Positions 1,450 to 39,552 of a stretch of 64,000 bases of DNA are shown piece by piece. A program made the translations under genes and the position numbers. Positions within the stretch are counted from its first letter, which is position 1. The number at the start of each line of letters is the position of its first letter. The DNA comes from Escherichia coli (GTDB lineage Bacteria > Pseudomonadota > Gammaproteobacteria > Enterobacterales > Enterobacteriaceae): the NCBI RefSeq assembly GCF_050320075.1, contig NZ_CP190018.1, one strand, 5' to 3'. The notes under the pieces were generated by a model. That model ran no database searches and was not told the origin of the DNA. It saw nothing but the letters and a program-made list of their open reading frames with translations.

Positions 1450-2658
1450 ATGACCGTAAATTCTTCACGTAATGCATTGAAACGCCGAACCTGGGCGCTG
1501 TTTATGTTCTTCTTTTTGCCGGGCCTGTTAATGGCGTCCTGGGCAACCCGTACGCCTGCTATCCGCGATATTCTTTCTGTTTCGATCGCTGAAATGGGCG
1601 GAGTCCTCTTTGGTCTGTCGATCGGTTCAATGAGCGGTATTCTCTGCTCGGCGTGGTTAGTGAAACGCTTTGGGACGCGTAATGTCATCTTGGTCACGAT
1701 GTCCTGCGCATTGATCGGGATGATGATACTAAGTCTGGCACTCTGGCTGACATCGCCCCTGCTCTTCGCGGTTGGTCTCGGCGTCTTTGGGGCAAGTTTT
1801 GGTTCTGCGGAAGTGGCGATAAACGTTGAAGGTGCTGCCGTTGAGCGAGAAATGAATAAGACGGTTTTGCCGATGATGCACGGTTTTTATAGCCTGGGCA
1901 CGCTGGCAGGCGCTGGTGTCGGGATGGCACTAACGGCCTTTGGCGTTCCGGCAACGGTGCACATTTTATTGGCGGCGCTGGTAGGCATCGCGCCTATTTA
2001 TATCGCCATTCAGGCAATCCCTGATGGTACGGGCAAAAATGCTGCCGATGGCACCCAGCATGGTGAAAAAGGCGTACCTTTTTATCGCGATATCCAGTTG
2101 CTACTGATTGGTGTTGTGGTGCTGGCGATGGCCTTTGCCGAAGGTTCTGCCAACGACTGGTTACCCTTATTAATGGTTGACGGTCACGGTTTTAGCCCTA
2201 CTTCCGGCTCGCTGATTTATGCCGGTTTTACCCTGGGGATGACCGTTGGACGCTTCACTGGCGGTTGGTTCATCGACCGTTACAGTCGCGTTGCCGTGGT
2301 TCGGGCCAGTGCACTAATGGGGGCGTTAGGTATTGGGCTGATTATTTTTGTCGATAGCGCCTGGGTCGCTGGGGTGTCTGTTGTACTCTGGGGACTGGGT
2401 GCCTCGCTGGGCTTCCCACTGACCATTTCTGCCGCCAGCGATACCGGCCCCGATGCACCAACCCGCGTCAGTGTGGTAGCAACGACCGGTTATCTGGCTT
2501 TCCTCGTCGGGCCGCCGCTGCTGGGCTATCTCGGCGAACATTATGGATTACGTAGTGCAATGCTGGTTGTACTGGCGCTGGTTATTCTCGCGGCTATTGT
2601 CGCGAAAGCCGTCGCCAAACCCGATACCAAAACGCAGACGGCGATGGAGAATAGTTGA
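1450..2658 (+). CDS. ybjJ: MFS transporter YbjJ
   Basis: 402-aa ORF, multi-TM MFS-like sequence beginning [15 protein letters not shown]. Confidence 0.9.
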
Positions 2659-3473
2659 TGAGCATTAAATTAATTGCGGTAGACATGGATGGTACTTTCT
2701 TAAGCGATCAAAAAACCTATAACCGTGAGCGGTTTATGGCTCAGTATCAGCAAATGAAAGCACAAGGCATTCGCTTTGTGGTCGCCAGCGGGAATCAATA
2801 TTATCAGTTGATCTCTTTCTTCCCTGAAATTGCTAATGAAATTGCCTTTGTGGCTGAAAACGGCGGCTGGGTAGTGAGCGAAGGCAAAGATGTTTTTAAT
2901 GGCGAGCTGTCGAAGGATGCGTTTGCTACTGTCGTGGAACATTTGCTGACGCGCCCGGAAGTGGAAATTATTGCCTGCGGAAAAAATAGCGCCTATACCC
3001 TCAAAAAATATGACGATGCCATGAAAACGGTGGCGGAAATGTATTATCACCGTCTGGAATACGTCGATAACTTTGACAACTTAGAAGATATCTTCTTTAA
3101 GTTTGGTCTGAATCTTTCCGATGAACTGATTCCACAAGTACAAAAAGCATTACATGAGGCCATCGGCGATATTATGGTGCCGGTCCACACCGGCAACGGC
3201 AGCATAGATCTGATTATCCCCGGCGTACATAAAGCCAATGGCCTTCGCCAACTGCAGAAATTATGGGGAATAGACGACAGCGAAGTAGTGGTCTTTGGCG
3301 ATGGCGGTAACGATATTGAGATGCTGCGTCAGGCAGGCTTTAGTTTTGCAATGGAAAATGCCGGCAGCGCGGTCGTCGCAGCGGCAAAATACCGGGCAGG
3401 CTCCAATAACCGTGAAGGCGTACTGGATGTGATCGATAAAGTGCTTAAACACGAAGCGCCATTTAACCAATAA
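2658..3473 (+). CDS. ybjI: HAD-family sugar phosphatase YbjI (Cof-like)
   Basis: ORF 2655..3473; HAD motifs DMDGTF and GDGGND; start overlaps ybjJ stop (ATGATGA). Confidence 0.9.
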   Translation: MSIKLIAVDMDGTFLSDQKTYNRERFMAQYQQMKAQGIRFVVASGNQYYQLISFFPEIANEIAFVAENGGWVVSEGKDVFNGELSKDAFATVVEHLLTRPEVEIIACGKNSAYTLKKYDDAMKTVAEMYYHRLEYVDNFDNLEDIFFKFGLNLSDELIPQVQKALHEAIGDIMVPVHTGNGSIDLIIPGVHKANGLRQLQKLWGIDDSEVVVFGDGGNDIEMLRQAGFSFAMENAGSAVVAAAKYRAGSNNREGVLDVIDKVLKHEAPFNQ

Positions 3474-3557
3474 AACGGCAGCACGCCCGGCAACACAATG
3501 CCTGAATGAAGATTGCATAATTCGCGGAAATTAACCCGCTGCATTATTTCAGGCGAA

Positions 3558-3842
3558 ATGATTATGAAAAATTGTCTACTGTTGGGCGCGCTTTTAATGG
3601 GCTTTACTGGTGTGGCGATGGCGCAAAGTGTCACCGTCGATGTGCCGAGTGGATACAAAGTGGTTGTGGTTCCTGATTCAGTCAGCGTTCCACAAGCGGT
3701 CAGCGTCGCGACTGTGCCGTAAACCGTCTATGTGGCTCCTGCGCCAGCTCCGGCTTACCGCCCGCATCCTTATGTTCGCCATCTTGCCAGCGTAGGTGAA
3801 GGGATGGTTATCGAACACCAGATTGACGACCATCACCATTAA
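3558..3842 (+). pseudogene. ybjH: ybjH interrupted by in-frame TAA (3720-3722) after codon 54; downstream 39 codons remain in frame to TAA at 3840-3842
   Basis: MIMKNCLLLGALLMGFTGVAMA signal-peptide-like N-terminus; reading through the internal stop gives a 94-codon protein ending ...IDDHHH. Confidence 0.6.
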
Positions 3843-3850
3843 TTCGAGAA

Positions 3851-3884
3851 TGCCTGATCGCACAAAGCAATCAGGCATTTTTTT
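3851..3884. terminator. Bidirectional intrinsic terminator between convergent ybjH and mdfA
   Basis: TGCCTGAT...ATCAGGCA 8-bp stem followed by TTTTTTT; T-tract overlaps the mdfA stop. Confidence 0.7.
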
Positions 3885-5115
3885 ACCCTTCGTGCGAATT
3901 TCCCATCTGTTTATCTTTTAAAAAGATAACCATCAGCAACAGCCACAAAATTCCGTTGACAAGGTTGAAGAGATTAAACAGTCCGTTGCCCCCGTTCAGC
4001 CAGGCATGTTTGCTGATTTCAATACCGACGGTAAAGATCAGCATTTGCAGCATCCCCATCGCCGCAGAAACCGTACCTTTACTCATATCGCTGGCAAACA
4101 GAGTTAATCGCACCAGTCCCGCATTCGCCAGACCAATACCGAAAGCATAAATACTTAACCCGGCGGTCATCCATAAATACGCGTGCGATGAGATAACCGT
4201 TGCCGCAGCAGCGACAAACAGACCAATCATAATCGGCCAGCCGCCCATAATAATCAGCGAACGTACGGTGCGGCGCGAGGTCAGACGCGCTAGCAGCAAG
4301 TTACCCGCAATTAACGCCCCGAAAATAGGCACTTGCAGCAAGCCATATTCATAGCTGCTCAACTGCTCACCGGTAATGATGATAATCGGCGACTGGGCGA
4401 TCCACGCCAGCAACGGCAGGCTAACGAATCCCAGCGCCAGCGCCCCCGCCACAAAGCGACCGTTCTTCAGCACCAGCTTATAGTCACGACCGAGTTCTTT
4501 CAGCGACAGTTTCTCGCCTATACGCGTGGCGGTTTCAGGCATGGCTCGTTGCAGACCGAAAAAGGAGATCGCTGCCAATGCGGCAAACAAAACAAACATC
4601 CCCTCCCAGGGCAGCACATGGATCCACGCCGCGCCCACCAGCGGACCAAGTAGTGGAGCAATCAGCGCCACGTTCGCCATTAGCGCGGTGATCTTGATAC
4701 AAACCGCCTCTTCGAAGGATTCCTGAATTGCGGCATATCCCACAGCGCCAATGAAACAGAGGCTTATGCCCTGCAAGAAGCGCAACAGGGTGAATTGTTC
4801 AATGTTTTGCGCCAGTAATATTGCCAGACAGGTGACGATAAACCACACCACTCCCGCCAGCATCACCGGACGGCGGCCAATACGATCCGACAGTGGCCCC
4901 AGGAGCCATTGTAAAAACATCCCGCCCGCCAGATACGCAGTCATCGAAGTAGGAACCCAATCAATGCCCGCCTGATATTGTTCCACCACGGCCAACATAC
5001 CGGGTTGAATCATATCGTTGCCGATATAGGTTGAAAATTCGTAAAGCACCAGACAGAGAGGGAAAAGTAACGCCTGACGTCCAAGCCTGGCACCGGAAGC
5101 TAATTTATTTTGCAT
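3883..5115 (-). CDS. mdfA: Multidrug efflux MFS transporter MdfA
   Basis: ORF 3883..5145; start set at internal ATG (5113-5115) giving 410 aa beginning [14 protein letters not shown]. Confidence 0.9.
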
Positions 5116-5399
5116 GCAATTTCTTCGCCAATAATAATCGCGCAAAGTTTAATAAAAGCGCAGCTAACGAGAAAGCGAATTTTGTAGCTGAAACCACGGT
5201 TAAGCACATTCTTACATTATCGCGAGTATAGCTACGCTTTCTTTAAGTTTTATTTAACCTATGCCCGTTACAATCACCCACCGTAAACAGGCCGCTTGAG
5301 GGAAATAAGACGATGCCGCTTTACCCAGTTTAACCTGCACTTTATTCTCAACGACTTGCCTGTATTGGCTCCCTTTTAATCACTTTGCGTCGGGAAGTT

Positions 5400-5996
5400 A
5401 TGCTGGAAAATTTGAATCTCTCTCTATTCTCTCTTATTAACGCGACGCCAGACTCTGCGCCGTGGATGATCTCGTTGGCGATTTTTATTGCTAAAGATTT
5501 GATTACCGTGGTGCCGTTGCTGGCCGCGGTACTTTGGCTGTGGGGGCTTACAGCACAACGGCAACTGGTGATAAAAATCGCTATCGCGCTGGCGGTCAGC
5601 CTGTTTGTGTCCTGGACGATGGGGCATCTTTTTCCGCACGACCGACCCTTTGTCGAAAATATCGGCTATAACTTCCTGCATCATGCGGCGGATGACTCAT
5701 TCCCGAGCGATCACGGTACGGTGATTTTCACCTTTGCACTGGCATTTTTATGCTGGCATCGCCTGTGGTCCGGCTCACTTTTAATGGTGCTGGCCGTCGT
5801 CATTGCCTGGTCGCGCGTTTATCTTGGCGTCCACTGGCCGCTGGATATGCTCGGTGGATTGCTGGCAGGTATGATTGGCTGCCTTAGCGCCCAGATTATC
5901 TGGCAAGCGATGGGGCATAAACTCTATCAACGTCTGCAATCGTGGTATCGCTTCTGTTTTGCATTACCGATCCGCAAAGGCTGGGTGCGTGACTGA
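5400..5996 (+). CDS. ybjG: Undecaprenyl-pyrophosphate phosphatase YbjG (PAP2 family)
   Basis: ORF 5385..5996; start at ATG 5400 (MLENLNLSLF); PAP2 motifs PSDH and SRVYLGVHWPLD. Confidence 0.9.
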   Translation: MLENLNLSLFSLINATPDSAPWMISLAIFIAKDLITVVPLLAAVLWLWGLTAQRQLVIKIAIALAVSLFVSWTMGHLFPHDRPFVENIGYNFLHHAADDSFPSDHGTVIFTFALAFLCWHRLWSGSLLMVLAVVIAWSRVYLGVHWPLDMLGGLLAGMIGCLSAQIIWQAMGHKLYQRLQSWYRFCFALPIRKGWVRD

Positions 5997-6053
5997 TCTC
6001 TGCTAAAAAGTGTAGTATTGAGCGGCTCGCTTCAATAACTATTCAGAGGGATT

Positions 6054-6812
6054 ATGGAAACACGTCGCGAAGAGCGTATCGGGCAGCTGCTGCAAGAATT
6101 AAAACGCAGCGATAAGTTACATCTTAAAGACGCCGCCGCCCTGCTTGGGGTTTCGGAGATGACGATTCGTCGCGATCTGAACAACCACAGTGCGCCCGTC
6201 GTTTTGCTCGGCGGCTATATTGTTCTGGAACCGCGCAGCGCCAGCCATTACCTGTTAAGCGATCAAAAATCCCGCCTGGTGGAAGAAAAACGCCGGGCGG
6301 CAAAACTGGCTGCGACGCTGGTAGAACCCGATCAGACCCTCTTTTTTGACTGTGGCACCACCACACCGTGGATTATTGAAGCGATTGATAATGAAATCCC
6401 TTTCACCGCCGTTTGTTATTCGCTAAATACCTTTCTGGCACTGAAAGAGAAACCCCATTGCCGCGCGTTTCTGTGTGGTGGTGAATTTCACGCCAGCAAC
6501 GCCATTTTCAAACCCATCGATTTTCAGCAAACGCTGAATAATTTTTGCCCGGATATCGCTTTTTATTCCGCGGCGGGGGTGCATGTCAGTAAAGGCGCTA
6601 CCTGCTTTAATCTTGAAGAGTTGCCGGTAAAACACTGGGCCATGTCGATGGCGCAAAAGCATGTGCTGGTTGTCGACCACAGTAAATTTGGCAAGGTGCG
6701 TCCGGCGCGCATGGGTGACCTGAAACGCTTTGATATTGTTGTGAGCGATTGTTGCCCGGAAGATGAGTATGTGAAGTACGCGCAGACGCAGCGTATTAAG
6801 TTGATGTATTAA
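6054..6812 (+). CDS. deoR: DeoR transcriptional repressor
   Basis: 252-aa ORF with N-terminal HTH, matches recalled DeoR. Confidence 0.9.
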   Translation: METRREERIGQLLQELKRSDKLHLKDAAALLGVSEMTIRRDLNNHSAPVVLLGGYIVLEPRSASHYLLSDQKSRLVEEKRRAAKLAATLVEPDQTLFFDCGTTTPWIIEAIDNEIPFTAVCYSLNTFLALKEKPHCRAFLCGGEFHASNAIFKPIDFQQTLNNFCPDIAFYSAAGVHVSKGATCFNLEELPVKHWAMSMAQKHVLVVDHSKFGKVRPARMGDLKRFDIVVSDCCPEDEYVKYAQTQRIKLMY

Positions 6813-6818
6813 TGACGT

Positions 6819-6851
6819 ATAACCGGATGACGTTTCGCGCCATCCGGTTAT
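6819..6851. terminator. Dyad-symmetry element between convergent deoR and dacC
   Basis: ATAACCGGATG ... CATCCGGTTAT 11-bp inverted repeat with ~11-nt loop; no strong U-tract. Confidence 0.5.
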
Positions 6852-6858
6852 CACAAAA

Positions 6859-8061
6859 TTAAGAGAACCAGCTGCCGAACCACTGATGGAATTTCATCAT
6901 CACGAAATCCCACATCCGACCAAAGAATCCGCCCTCTTCCACATTTTCCATCACGATCAGCGGACGCTGCTCAATGGATTTACCGTTAAGCTGGAAATCA
7001 ATGGTCCCGACAACCTGACCTTTTTTCAGCGGTGCGGTAAGCTGCGGTTCCGTTAACGTGTAGCTCGCTTTCAGGTTTTTCAGCTGCCCACGCGGTATGG
7101 TCACTGAGCCCGCTTCGCCTGCCCCGAGATTCACTTCGCTCTTATCTCCAAACCAGACGCGCTGAGTCACAAAGGTGGCATCAGGTTTAATTGGCGTCAC
7201 GGTTTCAAAGAAGCGGAAACCCCAGGTCAATAATTTCTCAGACTCATTAAAACGGATACGGTCAGTTTTCGCCCCCAGCACTACGGAGATCAAACGCATA
7301 TCGCCCTGGGTAGCCGAAGCAACCAGATTATATCCCGCGCCTGCCGTGGTTCCTGTCTTCATGCCATCAACATTCAGATTGCTGCTCCACAGCAGACGGT
7401 TACGGTTAGGCTGACGAATTTTGTTGAAGGTGAACTCTTTCTCTTTATGAATGGCGTACTCTTCCGGCACATCGTGGATCAATGCTTTACCCAGCAATGC
7501 CATATCGCGCGCGGTACTGAACTGCCCCGGCGCATCCAGGCCGTGCACCGTCTGGAAGGTAGTGTTGGTCAGACCCAGTTTTTTGGCATAACCATTCATC
7601 AGACCAATAAATGACTCCTGGCTCCCGGCAACGTAATCAGCCAGCGCAATACAGGCGTCATTACCGGACTGGATAATCACACCTTTGTTCAAGTCTGCCA
7701 CCGAAACCTGATCGCCCGGTTTGAGGAACATTACCGATGAACCACGCAGTGCCGGATTTCCCGTCGCCCAGGCATCTTTACCGACCGTCACCATATCGGT
7801 GAGTTTAATCTTATCGGCCTTAAGCGCCTGCCCAACCACATAGCTGGTCATGATTTTAGTCAGGCTCGCGGGGTCCAGTTTTTCATCCGCATTGCCTTCT
7901 GCCAGCACTTTACCGCTGGCGTAATCCATTAAAATCCATGCACGCGCATCCACGCTCGGCGCTTCAACGGTTTGTTCCGCCGCGAATGCCGTTGGGGCAA
8001 AAAGGAATAAAAATGCAGAACCCGCTGCAAGACCACGAAGGAGAGAGGAGTATTGCGTCAT
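6859..8061 (-). CDS. dacC: D-alanyl-D-alanine carboxypeptidase DacC (PBP6)
   Basis: ORF 6859..8082; start at internal ATG (8059-8061) giving 400 aa with signal peptide; SXXK, SGN and KTG motifs present. Confidence 0.9.
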
Positions 8062-8307
8062 AAATGCCACCCGAGTATCCATTCAAAAAAAATACGTTAT
8101 ATCGCCGTATGATAAGTTCGGTGATTAATAACGCACACACAAACTTAAAGAAACCGTAAGTTGGTAAAGTTTTTAAAGTTTATGCAATATCCTGCCGCTT
8201 CGCTGCTTCTGGTGTCATTTTTTTGCCAGCTGTTGCTTAAAAGTTAACTTTACTTCACCATCGGAGTCCTGTTCAGCCTGTGGCTGCCTGTCGGAAAAGG
8301 GGTGAGT

Positions 8308-8934
8308 ATGATTACGCTGTGGGGTCGGAATAATTCAACCAACGTAAAAAAAGTATTGCTGACGCTCGAAGAACTGGAACTACCTTATGAGCAAATTCTC
8401 GCGGGCCGTGAGTTTGGGATAAATCACGATGCTGATTTTCTGGCGATGAACCCTAACGGGCTGGTGCCGTTGTTGCGTGACGACGAAAGTGATCTCATTC
8501 TTTGGGAATCAAACGCCATTGTCCGCTATCTGGCGGCACAGTACGGGCAAAAACGCCTGTGGATCGACTCACCGGCACGTCGTGCGGAAGCAGAAAAATG
8601 GATGGACTGGGCAAACCAGACGCTCAGTAATGCTCATCGCGGGATCCTGATGGGATTAGTCAGAACACCACCGGAAGATCGCGATCAGGCCGCCATTGAT
8701 GCCAGTTGTAAAGAGTGCGACGCCCTGTTTGCCCTGCTCGATGCGGAACTGGCAAAAGTAAAATGGTTCTCCGGCGACGAGTTTGGTGTGGGCGATATCG
8801 CTATCGCACCGTTTATCTACAATTTGTTTAACGTTGGCCTGACCTGGACACCGCGTCCAAATCTGCAACGCTGGTATCAGCAACTCACTGAACGCCCCGC
8901 AGTGCGCAAAGTGGTGATGATTCCCGTTAGCTAA
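8308..8934 (+). CDS. gstB: Glutathione S-transferase GstB
   Basis: ORF 8302..8934; ATG at 8308 preceded by AAAAGGGG SD; GST-like sequence. Confidence 0.9.
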
Positions 8935-10046
8935 TTGCGTGGGCTAACTTTAAGTAATTCCCCACTGGACTCGTCGGTGAGAACGTATAAATAACCGTCG
9001 GGTCCAGTGCGAACATCACGAATTCGCTGCCCTCTGTCCGTTAAAATACGGCCATCTTCTGTCACTTTGTCGCCGTTGACGCTCATCACAATGACATCTT
9101 TATCTTTCAGCGCGCCAATAAATAATTTTTGCTGCCACTGGGGGAATTTATCGCTGTTATAGAAGGCCATGCCGCTCACGGCGGGCGAATCTTTCCAGTA
9201 AAAAACAGGTTGCTCGGTCCCGGCGACGATCTCCCCTTTCGCTTCCGGTATCTTAAAGCCTGAATAGTTGATTCCCCAGGTTGCCAGCGGCCAGCCGTAG
9301 TTTTTGCCTTTTTGCGGGATATTAATTTCATCGCCACCGCGCGGGCCATGTTCATTCAGCCATAGTGCATTACTCCACGGATTCATCGCCATTCCTTGCG
9401 GATTACGAATGCCATAAGACCAGATCTCGGCGCGCGCACCGGATTCCTTTATAAAAGGATTATCATCCGGGATTTCGCCCTGGTCGGTCAGACGCACCAG
9501 TTTGCCCTGTAATTTATCCAGATCCTGCGCCGTCGGGCGCTGATTGTTTTCGCCCAGAGCAATAAAAAGATAACCTTTACCGTCGAATACCAGCCGCCCG
9601 CCAAAATGGTTGCCGGTAGACAGTTTTGGCATCTGGCGAAAGACGGTGCGGAAGTCGGTCATCTTTGAGAGATCATCACTTAAGCGGCCATAACCCACAG
9701 CAGTTCCGGCTTTGCCATCATCGCCAACTTCGAAATAACTTAACCAGATGCGGCGAGACTGAGCAAAATCAGGCGCTAAAACCACGTCCAGCAGGCCGCC
9801 CTGCCCGTGCGCCCAAACGTCCGGAACTCCGGAAAGCGGCGCAGATAATCCTTTTCCTGCTTGCCAGTGACGCAACTCGCCGCCGCGCAGAGTGATTAAC
9901 ATACCGTGATTGTCGGGTAAAAAGGCCAGCGCCCAGGGATGGTCGAGTTTGTCTTGCAGTACTTCGACATTTACCGTTGCAGGAGCCGCCCAGAGAGCGG
10001 AAGAAAGACAAATAAGGGGCACAGAGAAAAAGAATTGTCGATGCAT
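8931..10046 (-). CDS. yliI: PQQ-dependent aldose sugar dehydrogenase YliI
   Basis: 371-aa ORF with signal peptide, matches recalled YliI; 4-bp convergent overlap with gstB. Confidence 0.9.
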
Positions 10047-27922: not shown

Positions 27923-30355
27923 ATGACCACACTGAAACTGGACACGCTCAGCGACCGCATTAAAGCGCACAAAAATGCGCTGGTGCATATTGTGAAACCG
28001 CCGGTCTGTACCGAGCGCGCGCAGCACTATACTGAGATGTATCAACAACATCTCGATAAGCCGATCCCGGTACGTCGCGCGCTGGCGCTGGCGCATCACC
28101 TGGCGAATCGCACTATCTGGATCAAGCACGATGAGTTGATCATTGGCAACCAGGCAAGCGAAGTTCGCGCCGCGCCGATCTTCCCGGAATATACTGTCTC
28201 GTGGATCGAAAAAGAGATTGATGATCTGGCAGATCGTCCCGGTGCTGGCTTTGCGGTGAGCGAAGAGAACAAACGCGTTCTGCATGAAGTGTGCCCGTGG
28301 TGGCGCGGTCAGACCGTACAGGATCGCTGCTACGGCATGTTTACCGATGAGCAAAAAGGTCTGCTGGCGACCGGCATCATTAAAGCGGAAGGCAATATGA
28401 CCTCCGGCGATGCGCACCTGGCGGTCAATTTCCCGCTGCTGCTGGAAAAAGGGCTTGATGGTCTGCGCGAGAAAGTAGCGGAACGTCGCTCGCGCATCAA
28501 CCTGACGGTGCTGGAAGATTTACACGGTGAGCAATTCCTGAAAGCGATTGATATCGTGCTGGTGGCAGTCAGTGAACACATTGAACGTTTCGCTGCCCTG
28601 GCGCGTGAAATGGCCGCGACCGAAACTCGCGAAAGCCGTCGCGATGAGCTGCTGGCGATAGCAGAAAACTGCGATCTTATCGCCCACCAACCGCCGCAGA
28701 CTTTCTGGCAGGCGCTGCAACTGTGTTACTTCATCCAGTTGATTTTGCAGATTGAATCTAACGGTCACTCCGTATCTTTTGGTCGTATGGACCAGTATCT
28801 GTACCCGTATTATCGTCGCGACGTTGAACTCAACCAGACGCTGGATCGTGAACACGCCATCGAGATGCTGCATAGCTGCTGGCTGAAATTGCTGGAAGTG
28901 AACAAGATCCGCTCCGGCTCACACTCAAAAGCCTCTGCGGGAAGTCCGCTGTATCAGAACGTCACTATTGGCGGGCAAAATCTGGTTGATGGTCAACCAA
29001 TGGACGCGGTGAATCCACTCTCTTACGCGATCCTCGAATCCTGCGGTCGCCTGCGTTCCACTCAGCCTAACCTCAGCGTGCGTTACCATGCAGGAATGAG
29101 CAACGATTTCCTCGACGCCTGCGTACAGGTGATCCGTTGCGGCTTCGGGATGCCGGCGTTCAACAACGACGAAATCGTGATCCCGGAATTTATTAAACTC
29201 GGTATTGAACCGCAGGACGCTTACGACTATGCAGCGATTGGTTGTATCGAAACCGCCGTCGGTGGCAAATGGGGCTATCGCTGTACCGGCATGAGCTTTA
29301 TCAACTTCGCCCGTGTGATGCTGGCGGCGCTGGAAGGCGGTCGTGATGCCACCAGCGGCAAAGTGTTCCTGCCACAAGAAAAAGCGTTGTCGGCAGGTAA
29401 CTTCAACAACTTCGATGAAGTGATGGACGCGTGGGATACGCAAATCCGTTACTACACCCGCAAATCAATCGAAATTGAGTATGTCGTCGACACCATGCTG
29501 GAAGAGAACGTACACGATATTCTCTGCTCGGCGCTGGTGGATGACTGTATTGAGCGAGCGAAAAGTATCAAACAAGGCGGCGCGAAATATGACTGGGTTT
29601 CTGGCCTGCAGGTTGGCATTGCCAACCTCGGCAACAGCCTGGCGGCAGTGAAGAAACTGGTATTTGAACAGGGCGCGATTGGTCAGCAACAGCTGGCTGC
29701 CGCACTGGCGGATGACTTCGATGGCCTGACTCATGAGCAACTGCGTCAGCGGCTGATTAACGGTGCGCCGAAGTACGGCAACGACGATGATACCGTCGAT
29801 ACGCTGCTGGCTCGCGCTTATCAGACCTATATCGACGAACTGAAACAGTACCATAACCCACGCTACGGTCGTGGTCCGGTTGGCGGCAACTATTACGCGG
29901 GTACGTCGTCTATCTCCGCTAACGTACCGTTTGGCGCGCAGACTATGGCAACACCGGACGGGCGTAAAGCCCACACCCCGCTGGCAGAAGGCGCAAGCCC
30001 GGCTTCCGGTACTGATCATCTTGGCCCTACTGCGGTCATTGGCTCGGTGGGTAAACTGCCTACGGCAGCGATTCTCGGCGGCGTGTTGCTCAACCAGAAA
30101 CTGAATCCAGCAACACTGGAGAACGAATCTGACAAGCAGAAACTGATGATCCTGCTGCGCACCTTCTTCGAGGTGCATAAAGGCTGGCATATTCAGTACA
30201 ACATCGTTTCCCGCGAGACGCTGCTGGAAGCGAAAAAACATCCGGATCAGTACCGCGATCTGGTAGTGCGTGTCGCGGGTTATTCCGCCTTCTTCACCGC
30301 GCTCTCTCCAGACGCTCAGGACGATATCATCGCCCGTACTGAACATATGCTGTAA
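27923..30355 (+). CDS. pflF: Pyruvate formate-lyase-like glycyl-radical enzyme (PflF/YbiW)
   Basis: 810-aa ORF; C-terminal glycyl-radical motif RVAGYSA. Confidence 0.9.
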   Translation: MTTLKLDTLSDRIKAHKNALVHIVKPPVCTERAQHYTEMYQQHLDKPIPVRRALALAHHLANRTIWIKHDELIIGNQASEVRAAPIFPEYTVSWIEKEIDDLADRPGAGFAVSEENKRVLHEVCPWWRGQTVQDRCYGMFTDEQKGLLATGIIKAEGNMTSGDAHLAVNFPLLLEKGLDGLREKVAERRSRINLTVLEDLHGEQFLKAIDIVLVAVSEHIERFAALAREMAATETRESRRDELLAIAENCDLIAHQPPQTFWQALQLCYFIQLILQIESNGHSVSFGRMDQYLYPYYRRDVELNQTLDREHAIEMLHSCWLKLLEVNKIRSGSHSKASAGSPLYQNVTIGGQNLVDGQPMDAVNPLSYAILESCGRLRSTQPNLSVRYHAGMSNDFLDACVQVIRCGFGMPAFNNDEIVIPEFIKLGIEPQDAYDYAAIGCIETAVGGKWGYRCTGMSFINFARVMLAALEGGRDATSGKVFLPQEKALSAGNFNNFDEVMDAWDTQIRYYTRKSIEIEYVVDTMLEENVHDILCSALVDDCIERAKSIKQGGAKYDWVSGLQVGIANLGNSLAAVKKLVFEQGAIGQQQLAAALADDFDGLTHEQLRQRLINGAPKYGNDDDTVDTLLARAYQTYIDELKQYHNPRYGRGPVGGNYYAGTSSISANVPFGAQTMATPDGRKAHTPLAEGASPASGTDHLGPTAVIGSVGKLPTAAILGGVLLNQKLNPATLENESDKQKLMILLRTFFEVHKGWHIQYNIVSRETLLEAKKHPDQYRDLVVRVAGYSAFFTALSPDAQDDIIARTEHML

Positions 30356-31467: not shown

Positions 31468-32733
31468 ATGGCTTCTACTTTTACCAGCGACACATTGCCT
31501 GCCGATCACAAAGCAGCTATCCGTCAGATGAAGCACGCGCTGCGGGCGCAGCTTGGCGACGTCCAGCAGATCTTTAATCAGCTAAGCGATGACATTGCCA
31601 CGCGAGTGGCTGAAATCAACGCACTCAAAGCACAGGGCGATGCCGTCTGGCCGGTGCTGTCTTATGCCGATATCAAAGCAGGTCATGTTACTGCAGAGCA
31701 GCGCATACAGATTAAACGTCGCGGTTGTGCGGTGATAAAAGGCCATTTCCCCCGCGAACAAGCGCTAGGCTGGGATCAGTCGATGCTGGACTATCTGGAC
31801 CGCAACCGCTTTGACGAGGTCTACAAAGGCCCCGGCGATAATTTCTTCGGGACGCTCAGCGCTTCACGTCCCGAGATTTACCCCATCTACTGGTCGCAGG
31901 CGCAAATGCAGGCTCGCCAGAGTGAAGAAATGGCGAATGCGCAGTCGTTTCTCAATCGTCTGTGGACATTTGAAAGTGATGGAAAGCAATGGTTTAACCC
32001 GGATGTGAGCGTCATCTACCCTGACCGTATCCGCCGCCGTCCGCCCGGAACGACCTCCAAAGGTCTTGGAGCGCATACCGACTCCGGGGCACTGGAACGC
32101 TGGCTGCTTCCAGCGTATCAGCGCGTTTTCGCCAACGTCTTTAATGGCAATCTGGCGCAATATGATCCCTGGCATGCGGCACATCGTACGGAAGTTGAAG
32201 AGTACACGGTGGACAACACCACCAAATGTTCCGTGTTTCGGACATTCCAGGGCTGGACAGCGCTCTCTGATATGCTGCCTGGTCAGGGGCTGCTGCACGT
32301 CGTGCCCATTCCTGAAGCCATGGCGTACGTACTGTTACGTCCGCTGCTTGATGATGTGCCGGAGGATGAACTGTGCGGCGTAGCGCCCGGAAGAGTATTG
32401 CCGGTATCAGAGCAATGGCATCCACTGTTGATTGAGGCGTTAACCAGCATTCCAAAACTCGAAGCCGGAGACTCCGTCTGGTGGCACTGCGACGTCATCC
32501 ATTCCGTTGCCCCCGTTGAAAATCAACAGGGCTGGGGCAACGTGATGTACATTCCTGCGGCACCGATGTGCGAGAAAAATCTTGCCTACGCGCACAAGGT
32601 GAAGGCCGCACTGGAAAAAGGCGCATCGCCGGGCGACTTCCCGCGCGAGGACTATGAAACAAACTGGGAAGGACGCTTTACGCTTGCCGACCTCAACATT
32701 CACGGTAAGCGAGCGTTGGGAATCGACAGCTGA
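31468..32733 (+). CDS. ybiU: DUF1479-family protein YbiU
   Basis: ORF 31462..32733; ATG 31468 (MASTFTSDTLPADHK); 421 aa. Confidence 0.85.
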   Translation: MASTFTSDTLPADHKAAIRQMKHALRAQLGDVQQIFNQLSDDIATRVAEINALKAQGDAVWPVLSYADIKAGHVTAEQRIQIKRRGCAVIKGHFPREQALGWDQSMLDYLDRNRFDEVYKGPGDNFFGTLSASRPEIYPIYWSQAQMQARQSEEMANAQSFLNRLWTFESDGKQWFNPDVSVIYPDRIRRRPPGTTSKGLGAHTDSGALERWLLPAYQRVFANVFNGNLAQYDPWHAAHRTEVEEYTVDNTTKCSVFRTFQGWTALSDMLPGQGLLHVVPIPEAMAYVLLRPLLDDVPEDELCGVAPGRVLPVSEQWHPLLIEALTSIPKLEAGDSVWWHCDVIHSVAPVENQQGWGNVMYIPAAPMCEKNLAYAHKVKAALEKGASPGDFPREDYETNWEGRFTLADLNIHGKRALGIDS

Positions 32734-33803
32734 GTGTCGTACAGCCCTTCCCGTTCCACGGCGGTGTTCCCTTTTCCTGGGCGAACCCGCCGCACTGACT
32801 CCCGCACCGCCAATCGTCCGTGCAGCAGCAGCGAGCCCACCGGAGCATCCGGGCGAATCAGCCGCTGTTGCAACATTTGCACCGCTTCATTGCCTAGCTC
32901 ATCGCGTGGCACATGCACAGCCGTCAGGGGAACATCCTCGATTGCCGCAAGGTTAAAGCCGTCGATACTCATCACCGAGACATCCTGTGGTACGCGCAGA
33001 CCACGACGATGTAGCGCATTTACCGTTCCCGCCGCCATAAAATCCCCGCCGACCAGAAACGCCGTCGGCAACGTCTTGCCATTGGCGGCATCCAGCCACG
33101 CTCCGACCTTTTCTTCCGCTTCTTTAGCGCTAAAACTGCTGATATTCAGCAAATGACGGTCATGGTGAAAGGCCAGATTATGCTGACGCCATGATTCTTT
33201 AATCCCTGCAAACCGCTGCTCCATAGTGTAGCGGCGCAGGCACATCACATTCATCACCTCCCGGTGACCCATTTCAAACAGATAGCGGGCGGCGAACGCG
33301 CCAATTAACCGATGGTCCGGCGCAATCGCCGGGAGGCGCATTCGTTCATCACGGCAGTTGATCAGCACACAAGGCTTAGCGAGATCGGCGGCCAGATCAT
33401 GGATGTGCGGATCGTCAATCCCCAGCAGGATCGCCGCCTGCGTATCTGCTTCATTCATTCGCGAGAGAAATAGCGCGGGATCGCTGTCAAACTCCTCCAG
33501 CGCGCAGTAACGCAGCCGCACTTCATGCGGCGATAACGCTTTGCTGATGCTCTGGATCACACGGTAATAAAAGATATCAGATCGTTGGTCAAAAGCGCGT
33601 TGCGGCGCGAAAATAATCAGGTTGTTCAGCAACATACGACCTGCTGCCATGCCATCCATCACGCCCAACTCACGCGCGCAGGCCAGCACCTGTTCGCGAG
33701 CGCGTGCACTGGTATTCGCTTTGCCAGCCAGCACCCGCGAAACCGTACTCGGCGATAGCCCGGTACGTGCGGCGATATCGGCGATTTTCAGCTTCTTGTC
33801 CAT
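32700..33803 (-). CDS. LacI/GalR-family transcriptional regulator (accessory island)
   Basis: ORF 32700..33881; start set at ATG 33801-33803 (MDKKLKIADIAARTGLSPSTVSRVLAG, N-terminal HTH); periplasmic-binding-like effector domain; last ~11 codons are antisense to the ybiU 3' end; not present between ybiU and ybiT in K-12. Confidence 0.8.
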   Translation of the reverse strand: MDKKLKIADIAARTGLSPSTVSRVLAGKANTSARAREQVLACARELGVMDGMAAGRMLLNNLIIFAPQRAFDQRSDIFYYRVIQSISKALSPHEVRLRYCALEEFDSDPALFLSRMNEADTQAAILLGIDDPHIHDLAADLAKPCVLINCRDERMRLPAIAPDHRLIGAFAARYLFEMGHREVMNVMCLRRYTMEQRFAGIKESWRQHNLAFHHDRHLLNISSFSAKEAEEKVGAWLDAANGKTLPTAFLVGGDFMAAGTVNALHRRGLRVPQDVSVMSIDGFNLAAIEDVPLTAVHVPRDELGNEAVQMLQQRLIRPDAPVGSLLLHGRLAVRESVRRVRPGKGNTAVEREGLYDTQLSIPNARLP

Positions 33804-34097
33804 TTTGTGATCTGCCTCTAATTCGGAAATGACAGAATTTTCATGAGCAAAAAAGCCCATTCTGTCTGGCATTAAATCCATTTCAGTAATGTATATCAGT
33901 CACTCATGGAAAAACGTGCACAAAACCCGCTTTCTTTCGCTTTTAGGGTCTCTTACTGTGAATTGGTAGAACAACTTCCATACAAAAATAATGGAAAAAC
34001 GAACAATAAAGACTTTATTTATCAAAAAGTTAAAAGTGGTGTGACAACTCCATTCTGACGTTGCCACACAAACCCTATACCATTCTGTGGAGTGCAT

Positions 34098-35399
34098 ATG
34101 AGTCAGGGTATCAATAACGATATGACTGCCAGTAAACCGCGCCATATCGTCAAAAATCTGCGTTGGTGGATACTGGTCCTTTTTTTGCTCGGTGTTACTG
34201 TCAACTACATCACGCGTAACTCGCTGGGTATTCTCGCCCCCGAACTGAAAAGCAACCTGGGGATTACCACCGAACAATATTCCTGGATTGTAGGTGCTTT
34301 CCAGCTCGCCTATACCCTATTCCAACCGTTGTGTGGATGGCTGATTGACGTCATTGGCCTCAAACTGGGCTTTATGATCTGCGCGGGACTGTGGGCGCTG
34401 GCCTGTCTGATGCATGCGGGGGCGGGAAACTGGGTACATCTGGCGCTGTTGCGCTTCTTTATGGGCGGTGCGGAAGCCGCGGCAACCCCAGCAAACGCCA
34501 AAACCATCGGTGAATGGTTTCCAAAATCAGAACGCCCGATCGCCGCAGGCTGGGCAGGCGTCGGTTTTTCCATCGGTGCCATGCTGGCCCCACCGATTAT
34601 CTATTTTGCCCACGCTTCATTCGGCTGGCAGGGTGCATTTATGTTCACTGGCATCCTGGCGATGCTGTGGGTGGTGCTGTGGTGGGCGTTCTATCACAAC
34701 CCGGATAAGCATCCGAACCTCAGCAAAGCCGAGCTGGACTTTATCCGCCAGGATAACGAAGCGCCCCCGATTAAATTACCCTTTCTGACCGCACTGAAAA
34801 CCGTGGGCAAAAATAAACGCTTTTACGGTATCGCTATCCCGGCCTTTATGGCAGAACCGGCGTGGGCGGTGATGAGTTTCTGGGTGCCGCTATACCTGTC
34901 CAAAACCTATGGCATGGACCTGAAGCAGATCGCATTATTCGCCTGGTTGCCGTTCCTCGCCGCTGATCTTGGCAGTATTGCCAGCGGCTATCTGACCAAA
35001 CTTTACACCCGCCTGTTTGGGCTGAGTCGTGTGAACTCCGTTGTCGCATCATCGGTCAGTGGCGCATTCTTGATGGTTTCGCTGGCGGTGATGGCCTTTA
35101 CCAATAACCCGTATATCGCCATCGTCCTTATTTCCATCGGCGGCTTCGGTCACCAGATCATCTCCTGCATGCTGAGCGCACTGGTGGTGGAATCCTTCGA
35201 CAAAGGTCAGATGGCCACTGTTAACGGCATGCGCGGTTCTGCCGCGTGGATCGCAAGTTTCCTGTTCTCCCTGATTATCGGGGTTACCGCTGACAAAATC
35301 GGCTTTAACCCCCTGTTTATCGCCATGGGCTTCTTTGACCTGATTGGCGCTTTCTTCCTGGTCACCTTTATTGCTGAACGTCGCGCAAAACGCGCCTGA
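34098..35399 (+). CDS. MFS transporter, anion:cation symporter family (ExuT/DgoT-like)
   Basis: ORF 34092..35399; ATG 34098 preceded by GTGGAG SD; 12-TM MFS; strong similarity pattern to recalled ExuT (e.g. TRN, FQPLCGWLIDVIG, GGAEAA, EWFP, FAWLPFLAADLG). Confidence 0.8.
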   Translation: MSQGINNDMTASKPRHIVKNLRWWILVLFLLGVTVNYITRNSLGILAPELKSNLGITTEQYSWIVGAFQLAYTLFQPLCGWLIDVIGLKLGFMICAGLWALACLMHAGAGNWVHLALLRFFMGGAEAAATPANAKTIGEWFPKSERPIAAGWAGVGFSIGAMLAPPIIYFAHASFGWQGAFMFTGILAMLWVVLWWAFYHNPDKHPNLSKAELDFIRQDNEAPPIKLPFLTALKTVGKNKRFYGIAIPAFMAEPAWAVMSFWVPLYLSKTYGMDLKQIALFAWLPFLAADLGSIASGYLTKLYTRLFGLSRVNSVVASSVSGAFLMVSLAVMAFTNNPYIAIVLISIGGFGHQIISCMLSALVVESFDKGQMATVNGMRGSAAWIASFLFSLIIGVTADKIGFNPLFIAMGFFDLIGAFFLVTFIAERRAKRA

Positions 35400-35413
35400 G
35401 AGTGGATGTAAAC

Positions 35414-37777
35414 ATGAAAACGCTGAAAAACTGGACCCTGCACAAACAGTCTGCCCACCACGTTGAACTGCTGGTCGATGGCCAGCATATCCTGTGCCTG
35501 TACGTGCTGGAAGAAAATCTGTTCCGCGTGCTGTTAAAACGCAAAGGCGAGCTGGCGCTGGATCGCACCTGGAGCATTGCTCCGGCGCAGGATGTGCCAT
35601 GGGAAGGGCGCAGCCGCGAAGATCTCAGCGGCTTTAGCCTGCCCGCGTGGACATTGATCCAGCACGACGACACCGTGGTTATCGCCACCGAGTCACTGCG
35701 TGCCACCGTTCACCAGCCGCTGTGGCTGGAGTGGCACTATCGTAACAACGAAGGCGAATGGCTGCCGTTGGTGAATGACCGCCCGACCAGCGCTTATCTG
35801 CTGAATGCCCACGGCGATGGCGTGGCACACTATCAGAGCCGTCGTAAAGATGAACGCTTTTATGGCCTCGGAGATAAAGCCGGCGACCTGCAACGCAACG
35901 GTAAACGTTACGAGATGCGTAACCTCGACGCGATGGGCTACAACGCCGTTAGTACTGACCCGCTGTACAAACACATTCCATTCACCATCACCCGCCGCGA
36001 TGACATTAGCTTCGGCCTGTTTTATGACAACCTCAGCAGCTGCTGGCTGGATCTGGGCAACGAGATCGACAACTACCACACCGCCTATCGCCGCTGGCAG
36101 GCGGAAGCGGGTGATATCGACTACTACCTGTTTACCGGCGAACGCGTACTTGATATCACCAAAGCCTTCGTACGCCTGACCGGCAAAACCCTGTTCGGAC
36201 CGAAATGGAGCCTGGGCTACAGCGGTTCAACTATGCACTACACCGATGCGCCGGACGCACAAAATCAGTTGATGAACTTTATCCGCCTGTGTGAAGAACA
36301 TGCGATTCCCTGCGATTCGTTCCAGCTCTCTTCCGGTTATACCTCAATTAACGGCAAGCGCTATGTGTTCAACTGGAATTACGACAAAGTGCCGCAGCCG
36401 AAAGTGATGAGCCAGGCATTTCACAATGCTGGTTTGCACCTGGCCGCCAATATCAAGCCGTGCCTGTTGCAGGATCACCCACGCTATAACGAAGTGGCAG
36501 AAAGAGGACTGTTCATCCGTGATTCAGAAACAGATGAACCAGAACGTTCCAGCTTCTGGGATGACGAAGGTTCTAACCTCGACTTTACTAATCCGCAGAC
36601 CATCCAGTGGTGGCAGGAAGGCGTGACCACACAGCTTCTGGAGATGGGTATCGACTCCACCTGGAACGACAACAACGAATTCGAAGTATGGGACGGTGAA
36701 GCACGCTGTCACGGCTTTGGTCAGACGATCGCGATCAAACATATTCGCCCGGTGATGCCACTGCTGATGATGCGAGCCTCGATGGAAGCCCAGCAACGTT
36801 TCGCTCCGGAAAAACGTCCGTACTTGATCTCCCGCTCCGGCTGCGCGGGAATGCAGCGCTATGTGCAGACCTGGAGCGGCGATAACCGCACTAGCTGGGA
36901 CACTCTGCGCTACAACACCCGCATGGGTCTGGGGATGAGCCTCTCCGGGCTGTATAACCTCGGTCACGACGTCGGCGGTTTCTCCGGTGATAAGCCGGAC
37001 CCGGAACTGTTTGTACGCTGGGTACAAAACGGCGTGATGCATCCGCGCTTTACGATTCACTCGTGGAACGATGACCATACCGTAAACGAACCGTGGATGT
37101 ATCCGGGCGTCACTCCGGCGATCCGCAGCGCTATTGAGTTGCGCTATCGCCTGCTGCCCTACTTTTATACCCTGATGTGGCAGGCATACGCCGATGATGA
37201 ACCAATGCTGCGTCCGACTTTCCTTGACCACGAGCACGACGTTCAGACTTTTGAAGAGTGTGATGACTTCCTGCTTGGTCGCGATATTTTGGTTGCCAGC
37301 GTCGTAGAGCAAGGCGAGCGCCAGCGCCGTGTATGGCTGCCAGATAACGAAACTGGCTGGTACGATTTCTACAACGGCGAATGGTTCAGTGGCGGTCAGT
37401 GGATCACCCTCGACGCACCGCTGGAGAAACTGCCGCTGATGGTGCGTGCCGGGGCTGGTCTACCGCTCAGCAAACGCATCACCTATGTGAGCGCAGAACA
37501 AGACGATACCCGCGAACTGAAACTGTTCCCGCTGAAAGGTGTGGGCACAACGTCCGGCCTGCTGTTTGAAGACGATGGCGAAAGCTGGGGCTACCAAACT
37601 GGTAATGCGCTTTGGGTGGAATGGGAAATGGTTTGCGATGGGGCGACCATCAACCTGAAAGTCAACGCGCGCGGGGATTATCGACCTGCATGGAGTGCAC
37701 TGAAAGTGTCATTACCAGTGGAAGAAAAACGCACGCTGCTGGTCAATGGTGTTGAAGGGAGTGAATGGATGCGTTAA
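35414..37777 (+). CDS. Glycoside hydrolase family 31 enzyme (alpha-glucosidase-like), specificity unknown
   Basis: ORF 35402..37777; ATG 35414; GH31 signature regions WNDNNEF (nucleophile region, cf. WIDMNE), QTWSGDNRTSW (acid/base region), GHDVGGF. Confidence 0.8.
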   Translation: MKTLKNWTLHKQSAHHVELLVDGQHILCLYVLEENLFRVLLKRKGELALDRTWSIAPAQDVPWEGRSREDLSGFSLPAWTLIQHDDTVVIATESLRATVHQPLWLEWHYRNNEGEWLPLVNDRPTSAYLLNAHGDGVAHYQSRRKDERFYGLGDKAGDLQRNGKRYEMRNLDAMGYNAVSTDPLYKHIPFTITRRDDISFGLFYDNLSSCWLDLGNEIDNYHTAYRRWQAEAGDIDYYLFTGERVLDITKAFVRLTGKTLFGPKWSLGYSGSTMHYTDAPDAQNQLMNFIRLCEEHAIPCDSFQLSSGYTSINGKRYVFNWNYDKVPQPKVMSQAFHNAGLHLAANIKPCLLQDHPRYNEVAERGLFIRDSETDEPERSSFWDDEGSNLDFTNPQTIQWWQEGVTTQLLEMGIDSTWNDNNEFEVWDGEARCHGFGQTIAIKHIRPVMPLLMMRASMEAQQRFAPEKRPYLISRSGCAGMQRYVQTWSGDNRTSWDTLRYNTRMGLGMSLSGLYNLGHDVGGFSGDKPDPELFVRWVQNGVMHPRFTIHSWNDDHTVNEPWMYPGVTPAIRSAIELRYRLLPYFYTLMWQAYADDEPMLRPTFLDHEHDVQTFEECDDFLLGRDILVASVVEQGERQRRVWLPDNETGWYDFYNGEWFSGGQWITLDAPLEKLPLMVRAGAGLPLSKRITYVSAEQDDTRELKLFPLKGVGTTSGLLFEDDGESWGYQTGNALWVEWEMVCDGATINLKVNARGDYRPAWSALKVSLPVEEKRTLLVNGVEGSEWMR

Positions 37778-37784
37778 ATCATTA

Positions 37785-37819
37785 CCGGGGCCGGGAGGCG
37801 ACTGCGCCTTACCCGGTCC
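37785..37819. repeat. REP-like element at the island/ybiT boundary
   Basis: GCCGGGAGGCGACTGCGCCTTACCCGGTCC resembles the REP consensus GCCGGATGCGGCGTGAACGCCTTATCCGGCC. Confidence 0.35.
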
Positions 37820-37956
37820 AGCCATCGAATCCTTTACCTCAGTATTTCACGCTGCAGGAAGGCAGCAAACCTGTAAACCCCGGGAGCTTAAATAAGTAAG
37901 TGACCGGGGTGAACAGGTGAAGCCAATGCATCTGCCGCATGAAAGACGGCGGGAAA

Positions 37957-39552
37957 TTAACCGTCGATCCCTTTACTACGCAGGTAATCTTCGTAATTAC
38001 CGCTAAAGTCGATCACGCGTTCCGGGGTGATTTCCAGAATTCGGGTCGCCAGGGAGCTTACAAACTCACGGTCGTGAGACACAAAGATCAGCGTGCCCTG
38101 ATACAGTTCCAGCGCCATGTTCAGCGACTCAATAGATTCCATATCCAGGTGGTTGGTCGGTTCGTCCATGATCAGAATGTTCGGCTTCTGCATCATTAAC
38201 TTACCAAACAGCATCCGCCCTTTTTCTCCACCGGAAAGCACTTTCGCTGGCTTTTTGATGTCGTCCTGGCTGAACAGCAAACGACCGAGAATGCTGCGTA
38301 CCGCCTGCTCATCATCGCCTTCCTGCTTCCACTGGCTCATCCATTCGAACACGGTCAGATCATTTTCAAACTCATATTCGTGGTCCTGGGCGTAGTAACC
38401 AATGCGTGCGTTTTCAGACCATTTTACGGTGCCGCTGTCCGGTTGCAGATCGCCCACCAGCGTTTTCAGCAGCGTTGATTTACCGACGCCGTTGGTACCC
38501 AGTACAGCCAGTTTTTCACCCACTTCCAGCAGCAGGTTGAGATTTTTAAACAGTGGACCGTTATCAAACCCTTTGGTCAGACCTTCCACTTCCAGCGCGT
38601 TACGGAACAGTTTCTTATCCTGTTCAAAACGGATGAACGGGTTCTGACGGCTGGAGGCTTTCACCTCTTCCAGTTTGATTTTATCAATCTGGCGCGCGCG
38701 CGAAGTTGCCTGGCGAGATTTCGAGGCGTTGGCGCTAAAGCGGCTAACGAAAGATTGCAGCTCAGCAATCTGCGCTTTCTTCTTGGCGTTATCAGCCAGC
38801 AGACGCTCACGCGCCTGGGTCGCCGCCGTCATGTACTCATCGTAGTTACCTGGATAAACGCGCAGCTCGCCGTAATCCAGATCCGCCATGTGGGTACAAA
38901 CCATGTTAAGGAAGTGACGGTCGTGCGAGATGATGATCATGGTGCTGTCACGCTCGTTCAGCACCTGTTCCAGCCAACGAATGGTGTCGATGTCGAGGTT
39001 GTTGGTCGGTTCGTCGAGCAGGAGAATGTCTGGATCAGCAAACAGCGCCTGCGCCAGCAGCACACGCAGCTTCCAGCCAGGAGCAACTTCACTCATCGGG
39101 CCGTAGTGCTGTTCCACTGGAATTCCCACGCCAAGCAACAGTTCACCGGCGCGAGCTTCCGCAGAGTAACCGTCCATTTCGCCGTATTTCACTTCCAGAT
39201 CGGCCACTTTATAGCCGTCTTCTTCACTCATTTCCGGCAAAGCATAGATGCGGTCACGCTCCTGTTTCACTTCCCACAACTCTTTATGCCCCATGATCAC
39301 CGTATCCAACACAGTGAACTCTTCAAAGGCAAACTGATCCTGACGCAGCTTACCAATGCGCTCGTTGGGATCGAGGGAAACGTTACCCAACGTCGGCTCT
39401 AAGTCGCCGCCGAGGATCTTCATAAAGGTGGATTTACCACTACCGTTCGCGCCAATCAGGCCGTAACGGTTGCCGCCGCCAAATTTGACGGAAATGTTTT
39501 CAAACAACGGCTTACTGCCGAACTGCATGGTGACGTTACTGGAAACTAACAC
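37957..39552 (-). CDS. ybiT: ABC-F family ATPase YbiT
   Basis: 531-codon ORF with two ABC domains ([18 protein letters not shown]); start codon GTG as given by the ORF track, exact start uncertain. Confidence 0.85.

Follow-up and report, generated by a model that had tools for sequence, protein, structure and literature searches.

Organization of the ybiU locus

The window, by which we mean the whole 64,000-nucleotide stretch of Escherichia coli DNA that was analysed, carries ybiU on its forward strand at 31468..32733, encoding a DUF1479/Gig2-like protein of 421 amino acids that ends ...HGKRALGIDS, as defined from the open reading frame (ORF) listing, the sequence and the PGAP coding sequence. 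The ORF listing gives its start as 31462/31468, and its stop codon is a TGA at 32731-32733. Facing it on the reverse strand is a gene for a LacI-family regulator of 367 amino acids (32700..33803), delimited from the ORF listing, the PGAP annotation and the N-termini of orthologues that share its MDKKLK start, and terminated by a TGA at 32702-32700. At its longest the regulator ORF spans 32700..33881 on the reverse strand, and the PGAP version has 386 amino acids with a start at 33860, which is probably too far upstream. Divergent from the regulator lie, on the forward strand, a gene for a Major Facilitator Superfamily (MFS) transporter resembling anion:cation symporters and D-galactonate transporters (34098..35399) and a gene for an alpha-glucosidase-like glycoside hydrolase of family GH31 (35414..37777; PGAP and profiles). 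These are followed on the reverse strand by ybiT (37957..39552), encoding an ABC-F ATPase of 531 amino acids that ends ...KGIDG* as in other genera.

The first-pass annotation had described the 3' end of the regulator gene as running antisense into the ybiU stop region, and this is borne out by the ORF listing, the sequence and the codon table: with stops at 32700 and 32733, the two genes overlap tail to tail on opposite strands by 34 nt (32700..32733). Each gene contributes its last 10 sense codons and its stop to the overlap; the codon table shows HGKRALGIDS* for ybiU and TQLSIPNARLP* for the regulator, with the wobble positions of one frame coinciding with those of the other. Both coding sequences are annotated with an equal overlap in the RefSeq/PGAP annotation of an identical genome, where ybiU ends at 8434 and the regulator at 8401.

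The regulator has a native tail and a short read-through extension

The N-terminus of the regulator carries a helix-turn-helix of LacI type (PF00356, found in the protein and its orthologues), and its alignments to the NCBIfam RbsR, CytR and PurR profiles begin at residue 3-7. An effector domain resembling periplasmic binding proteins is also present (PF13377 and PF00532), and scores against all specific equivalog profiles lie far under their cut-offs. The protein is nearest to that of Kluyvera (90-92% at the amino acid level). NCBIfam profiles for the LacI family stop at residues 334-342 of 367, leaving some 25-30 residues beyond them; the regulator does therefore outrun typical members of its family, as first proposed, although the residues that follow ...LAVRESV number 30 (RRVRPGKGNTAVEREGLYDTQLSIPNARLP) and not about 40.

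These 30 residues are of two kinds. The first 20, RRVRPGKGNTAVEREGLYDT (residues 338-357; 32733..32792, reverse strand), were delimited by orthologue alignment and profile ends and are conserved across orthologues in over 20 genera of enterobacteria. Protein search and alignment across the Enterobacteriaceae give a consensus C-terminus of ...LAVRESVRRIRPGKxRTAVEREGLYDx, in which R357, R358, R360, G372, L373, Y374 and D375 (P0001 numbering) are invariant and make up an R-R-x-R and a G-L-Y-D motif. Among 120 protein clusters, 83 end in GLYDx, 9 in GLYD and about 14 in xQxSxPxARLP. Because they are conserved in the orthologous group, 20 of the 30 extra residues are, on the alignment, native to the subfamily and form its own tail between LAVRESV and the ancestral stop. 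A native stop just after LAVRESV, as had been supposed, is contradicted by the conservation of the next 20 residues both across this group and in a paralogue from the selC island.

The last 10 residues, QLSIPNARLP (10 codons, 32703..32732, reverse strand), are antisense to ybiU ...GKRALGIDS* and, judged against the orthologues, are a read-through past the ancestral stop. DNA alignment and the codon table place that stop at what is now the regulator codon CAG (Gln358; 32730..32732, reverse strand), of which bases 32731-32732 also supply the TG of the ybiU TGA stop. The earlier view of the tail as read-through thus holds for the final 10 codons, but not for the 20 residues before them. The length of the read-through is within chance: the next in-frame stop comes after 10 codons, where random sequence would give about 21.

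The ybiU stop codon sets the length of the regulator

We examined the contigs encoding orthologues together with 80 more loci from over 20 genera, which came from scanning one genome for each species. In every genus where they are adjacent and overlapping, the regulator and ybiU are convergent. Where ybiU stops with TGA (13 loci, comprising this E. coli window, Kluyvera, Pseudocitrobacter and Salmonella enterica subsp. diarizonae), the overlap is 34 nt in all and the regulator takes the long form of 367 amino acids, reduced to 345 in one locus by an internal deletion. Where ybiU stops with TAA or TAG (58 loci), the overlap is 4 nt in all and the regulator has 356-357 amino acids; these 58 loci have TAA or TAG at the position matching codon 32730-32732, giving the shorter product. 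Kluyvera, Pseudocitrobacter and S. diarizonae thus show 34 nt of overlap, and S. enterica, Citrobacter and Enterobacter 4 nt. In a further 13 loci ybiU was not found adjacent, and the C-terminus is GLYD(x) all the same; this group includes Cedecea, Buttiauxella, Mangrovibacter, Franconibacter, Edwardsiella and two loci of other genera, one of which had little flanking DNA available. Every long form ends at the identical TGA, 30 nt downstream. Within Salmonella the contrast comes down to one base in the stop, AGT TAA ATG (S. enterica, locus L008) against AGT CAA ACG (diarizonae, locus L007). The association, seen in 13 loci on one side and 58 on the other, is phylogenetically clustered and reflects about two independent switches, the long-form loci being few and closely related; the split is a rule that follows in part from the geometry itself and not a statistical discovery.

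The DNA alignment shows how the geometry produces this rule. In the common state the two stops interlock in a tetranucleotide that reads YTAR along the regulator strand, such that the regulator stops at TAA or TAG and the ybiU stop, being the reverse complement of YTA, is likewise TAA or TAG; the regulator then ends ...GLYDx at 356-357 amino acids. A TGA stop in ybiU makes the regulator strand read TCAN and places a codon CAN (Gln or His), never a stop, in the regulator frame. A change from TAA to TGA, silent in ybiU, accordingly abolishes the regulator stop, and the ORF continues for 10 codons antisense to ybiU ...IHGKRALG... as far as a TGA opposite Ile-His (ATT CAC). The window carries the TGA state, with its 367-residue regulator and 34-nt overlap, and the extension of the regulator is explained by a single base difference in the four bases where the two stops meet (TTAA against TCAR) and not by an insertion. 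The short form is probably ancestral, and the 10-codon extension is presumably translated and may well be near-neutral.

We are confident, then, that ybiU and the regulator are an old convergent pair touching at their 3' ends across the Enterobacteriaceae, that the ybiU stop codon sets the length of the regulator, and that the segment to which the regulator belongs is ancestral.

Possible functions of the overlap

The convergence without a spacer could itself be regulatory, coupling the two genes through antisense transcription or transcriptional interference, with the length of the overlap (4 or 34 nt) being incidental. The stop/stop overlap has been kept in 71 loci from more than 20 genera, E. 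coli offers a tail-to-tail precedent in arfA-mscL (PMC10070815), and there is no convincing intrinsic terminator between ybiU and the regulator. A search for terminators in and near the overlap returned 2 weak hairpins against 2.3 expected in shuffled sequences, both of them within the coding sequence of the partner gene; with no signal above chance, each transcript probably runs into the other gene. Adjacency may, however, be kept simply for want of rearrangement, and in several genera the regulator module stands apart from ybiU although the protein is unchanged; we consider that such coupling would be an unlikely explanation for the arrangement. A bolder proposal is that the ybiU stop acts as a genetic toggle for the regulator C-terminus, the convergence coupling ybiU, again by antisense or transcriptional interference, to the repressor of the neighbouring genes for uptake and hydrolysis of alpha-glucoside type, with YbiU working in the same pathway; we regard this as quite improbable. 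A literature search for ybiU together with ybiT returned one unrelated paper on K-12.

It is very improbable that the 10-residue extension is a selected addition, such as a stability tag or an element for interaction or oligomerization, for which the TGA of ybiU has been retained. The long form does occur throughout Kluyvera and Pseudocitrobacter, and its ...P(S/N)ARLP end is near-invariant in the 13 long-form loci of four genera. This conservation is fully explained by antisense constraint: conservation of the last six residues follows from that of ybiU HGKRALG on the opposite strand, and the four codons that face the variable C-terminus of YbiU vary freely (QLSI, QPSI, QTSM, HSSI, QASS). Most genera are without the extension, and in an AlphaFold model the tail has a pLDDT below 50 and lacks secondary structure, although that model is a weak one, built from a 25-sequence alignment with a mediocre mean pLDDT of 66.

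The ybiU-ybiT segment is polymorphic in E. coli and syntenic elsewhere

Comparison with K-12 defines a variable segment of 5,243 bp (32721..37963) that comprises the regulator, MFS and GH31 genes. It is found in 576 of 5426 complete E. coli genomes, and in the rest homology to the window ends at 32720-32726. Base by base, identity with K-12 breaks at 32720/32721 and restarts at 37964, and the K-12 counterpart is a spacer of 257 bp containing a REP element, in which blastn-short gave only chance matches of 9-15 nt to the segment. The variable block reaches into ybiU at one end, over its final three codons and stop (IDS* in the window, MDV* in K-12), and into ybiT at the other, over its final two codons and stop (GIDG* in the window, GIE* in K-12). 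Only PNARLP*, six sense codons and the stop (32700..32720), is regulator sequence common to E. coli lacking the segment. The first-pass annotation was therefore right to expect a junction inside the 3' end of the regulator, and alignment with the K-12 ybiU-ybiT interval puts it at 32720/32721, within the final 7 codons; but the tail does not derive from it, and the ancestral stop of the orthologues lies at 32730-32732 and not at LAVRESV. The K-12 breakpoint falls within the overlap by coincidence, and it did not create the tail.

K-12 YbiT has 530 amino acids and ends ...KGIE*, one residue short of every other genus, and K-12 is therefore the derived form on the ybiT side, while the window keeps both the ...GIDG* end and the downstream TTTCCCGCCGTC as in Citrobacter. 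Between the haplotypes, the final 13 nt of ybiU disagree at 6 of their 10 sense positions, the end being Salmonella-like in K-12 and Kluyvera-like in the window. Given this divergence, a single deletion does not account for the difference between the haplotypes, one or both of which came into E. coli from a diverged lineage through homologous recombination. Among representatives of other Escherichia species, the segment occurs only in Escherichia sp. MOD1-EC7003, at 97.7% nucleotide identity.

Beyond Escherichia, the order ybiT-GH31-MFS-regulator-ybiU-ybiV-ybiW-ybiY is shared by Kluyvera, Salmonella (two subspecies), Citrobacter and Enterobacter; Pseudocitrobacter has the common order on the ybiU side and a different one on the far side. 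Segment genes also stand beside ybiU in Kosakonia, Raoultella, Klebsiella and others, and flank analysis of 80 species representatives placed the regulator next to ybiU in most. Nucleotide identity to other genera is 73-83% for the segment genes, against 76-82% for ybiU, 83-85% for ybiW and 85-87% for ybiT. G+C content is 52-56% within the segment and 49-58% in the flanks, and base composition is not atypical. No mobility genes and no tRNA or att site were found at the segment border, and 32721..37963 holds only the regulator, MFS and GH31 genes. A recent transfer from Kluyvera was considered and rejected, the segment being only 80-83% identical to Kluyvera in nucleotide sequence and no closer than its flanks. 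Because its divergence and G+C content are like those of the flanks, its gene order is shared and it holds no mobility gene, the three-gene segment is ancestral enterobacterial synteny with a presence/absence polymorphism in E. coli, most of which, K-12 included, have lost it.

Of the features expected of a genomic island, the segment has strain-variable presence within E. coli; it shows neither absence from related genera nor an identity to some donor closer than that of its flanks. It is hardly credible, then, that a horizontally acquired island was inserted beside ybiU with its junction inside the 3' end of the regulator, the native stop being lost and the whole of the tail after LAVRESV being adventitious read-through into core DNA: the limited distribution of the segment in E. 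coli, the end of homology inside the regulator ORF and the excess of the regulator over generic LacI-family profiles would all suit such an event, but the identical tail and 34-nt overlap recur in three other genera, two-thirds of the tail is conserved family-wide and in the selC-island paralogue, the segment is syntenic across the Enterobacteriaceae with neither integrase nor compositional anomaly, and the breakpoints, one within the end of ybiU and one within that of ybiT, are consistent with homologous replacement or deletion and not with insertion. Orthologous regulators of 367 amino acids with the same C-terminal extension, found in Kluyvera, Pseudocitrobacter and S. enterica subsp. diarizonae, are the very observation that the first-pass annotation had named as contradicting an origin at the junction.

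Implications

The overlap is real, annotated and ordinary biology, and its cause is a stop-codon coupling common to other genera. The ybiU-ybiT segment is not a recent island with a gene-damaging border, and the regulator is intact. The pair offers a clean natural example of how, where convergent stops interlock, one gene can be lengthened by a change that is silent for its partner, and it has a use in annotation, in that the length of the regulator (356-357 or 367 amino acids) can be predicted from the ybiU stop codon. The overlap of ybiU and the regulator raises no new biological question.

Comparison with known systems

A paralogous module of regulator, MFS and GH31 genes in the same order is found in E. 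coli B REL606, within the integrase island at selC (tRNA-Sec). The DNA of its regulator is about 71-72% identical to that of the window, and the protein keeps the SVRRIRPG...GLYD tail, ending ...GDGLYD* at 356 amino acids. Unlike the segment in the window, the REL606 module belongs to a genuine mobile island, with an integrase and tRNA-Sec, and does not stand beside ybiU.

LacI has a C-terminal tetramerization helix at residues ~340-360, and the regulator resembles it in also having a C-terminal segment past the effector-binding core. The likeness goes no further: the regulator tail is rich in Arg, Pro and Gly, ends in GLYD, has no predicted helix and no leucine heptads, and, unlike the LacI helix, is conserved only in its enterobacterial subfamily.

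Like arfA-mscL, the pair consists of enterobacterial genes that converge, are complementary in their 3' regions and have a conserved shared location. In arfA-mscL, regulation by antisense RNA was shown by experiment, and the complementary stretches are a 3' UTR and a coding sequence (PMC10070815). The overlap of ybiU and the regulator, unlike that of arfA-mscL, joins coding sequence to coding sequence, and any regulation through it would be hypothetical.

The geometry of interlocked stops is that of a short, 4-nt convergent overlap, as seen in the short state of ybiU and the regulator; reverse-complemented stop codons reportedly set the preferred offsets of overlaps, a point attributed to Kingsford et al. 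2007. Loss of a stop codon followed by 3' elongation is described as a common route to overlapping genes in the part of PMC3887535 that cites Fukuda et al. 1999/2003. The same course would apply here, where a stop was lost by a point change and the ORF was extended to the next in-frame stop in its neighbour. The present case differs from stop-loss overlaps in general in that the lost regulator stop shares bases with the ybiU stop, such that a silent change of TAA or TAG to TGA toggles the length of the regulator, and in that both states stand side by side in related species, even within Salmonella enterica.

Termini of the LacI-family regulator

Three starts can be read for the regulator on the minus strand of the window: the longest open reading frame begins at 33881 (393 aa), the call of the RefSeq annotation pipeline PGAP lies at 33860 (386 aa), and the N-terminus conserved among orthologues, MDKKLK, begins at 33803 (367 aa). 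In the protein counted from MDKKLK, the helix-turn-helix starts near residue 5, and 11 nt upstream of this start codon there is a GAGG; the PGAP start is probably placed too far upstream, making the protein too long. Even so, within the translated stretch between these starts (33803-33881, minus strand) the residues 'ENSxIxELEADHK', upstream of MDKKLK, are semi-conserved in a few genera, perhaps as regulatory DNA.

At the other end, the protein carries a subfamily-specific C-terminal motif, SVRRxRPGxxxTxVxxxGLYD (32733-32792, minus strand), which lies past the end of generic LacI-family profiles and is strongly conserved across genera. The AlphaFold model shows no confident structure in this region.

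Variant loci occur in other genomes. The regulator in a Logan assembly of Salmonella enterica subsp. diarizonae (L007, 6001-7038) is shortened to 345 aa, having lost approximately 25 internal residues (after ...LLVFA) and gained three (LLL) by insertion, and its C-terminus is still that of the long form; the regulator of the type strain of this subspecies (L022) has the full 367 aa. In Kluyvera genomosp. 3 YDC799 (L014) the full 367-aa form is retained, ending NQTSMPSARLP, and the ybiU match stops about 150 nt short, possibly through a frameshift or pseudogene. Typical Enterobacteriaceae regulator-ybiU loci were also found in records labelled Chryseobacterium sp. 18061 (L028, CACSKA010000002.1), where a gap of about 35 nt separates the two genes, and 'Proteobacteria bacterium' (L072, a MAG); these non-enterobacterial or vague names probably reflect mislabelling or contamination.

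Flanking genes and the selC paralogue

YbiT has 530 aa in K-12 (...KGIE*) and 531 aa in the window (compared at 3675-3680 of the K-12 locus and 37957-37966 of the window), and the 531-aa form (...KGIDG* or ...KGIES*) is common to the window, Kluyvera, Salmonella, Citrobacter and Enterobacter; the last ybiT codons are clipped by the right breakpoint of the K-12 haplotype. In island-free E. coli MJ-T (L003), an IS621 (IS110-like) transposase (3695-4675) has inserted into the REP-containing ybiU-ybiT spacer.

On the other flank, ybiW (27923-30355) shows just 96.7% identity with K-12 in the compared part (K-12 locus, 1-1056), and is more diverged than the adjoining ybiV (98.3%) or ybiU (99.4%), a difference that suggests a mosaic recombination history for this neighbourhood.

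A paralogous LacI-regulator/MFS/GH31 module is found in E. coli B REL606 (L093, NC_012967.1 3773806-3784806; locus positions 1459-9918), set in a tRNA-Sec (selC) island with a tyrosine integrase adjoining. This paralogue is the top match for 228 E. coli genomes, and both copies are present in some genomes, at two places in the record. Its regulator DNA is approximately 72% identical to that of the window, and its product also keeps the SVRRxRPGxxxTxVxxxGLYD motif.
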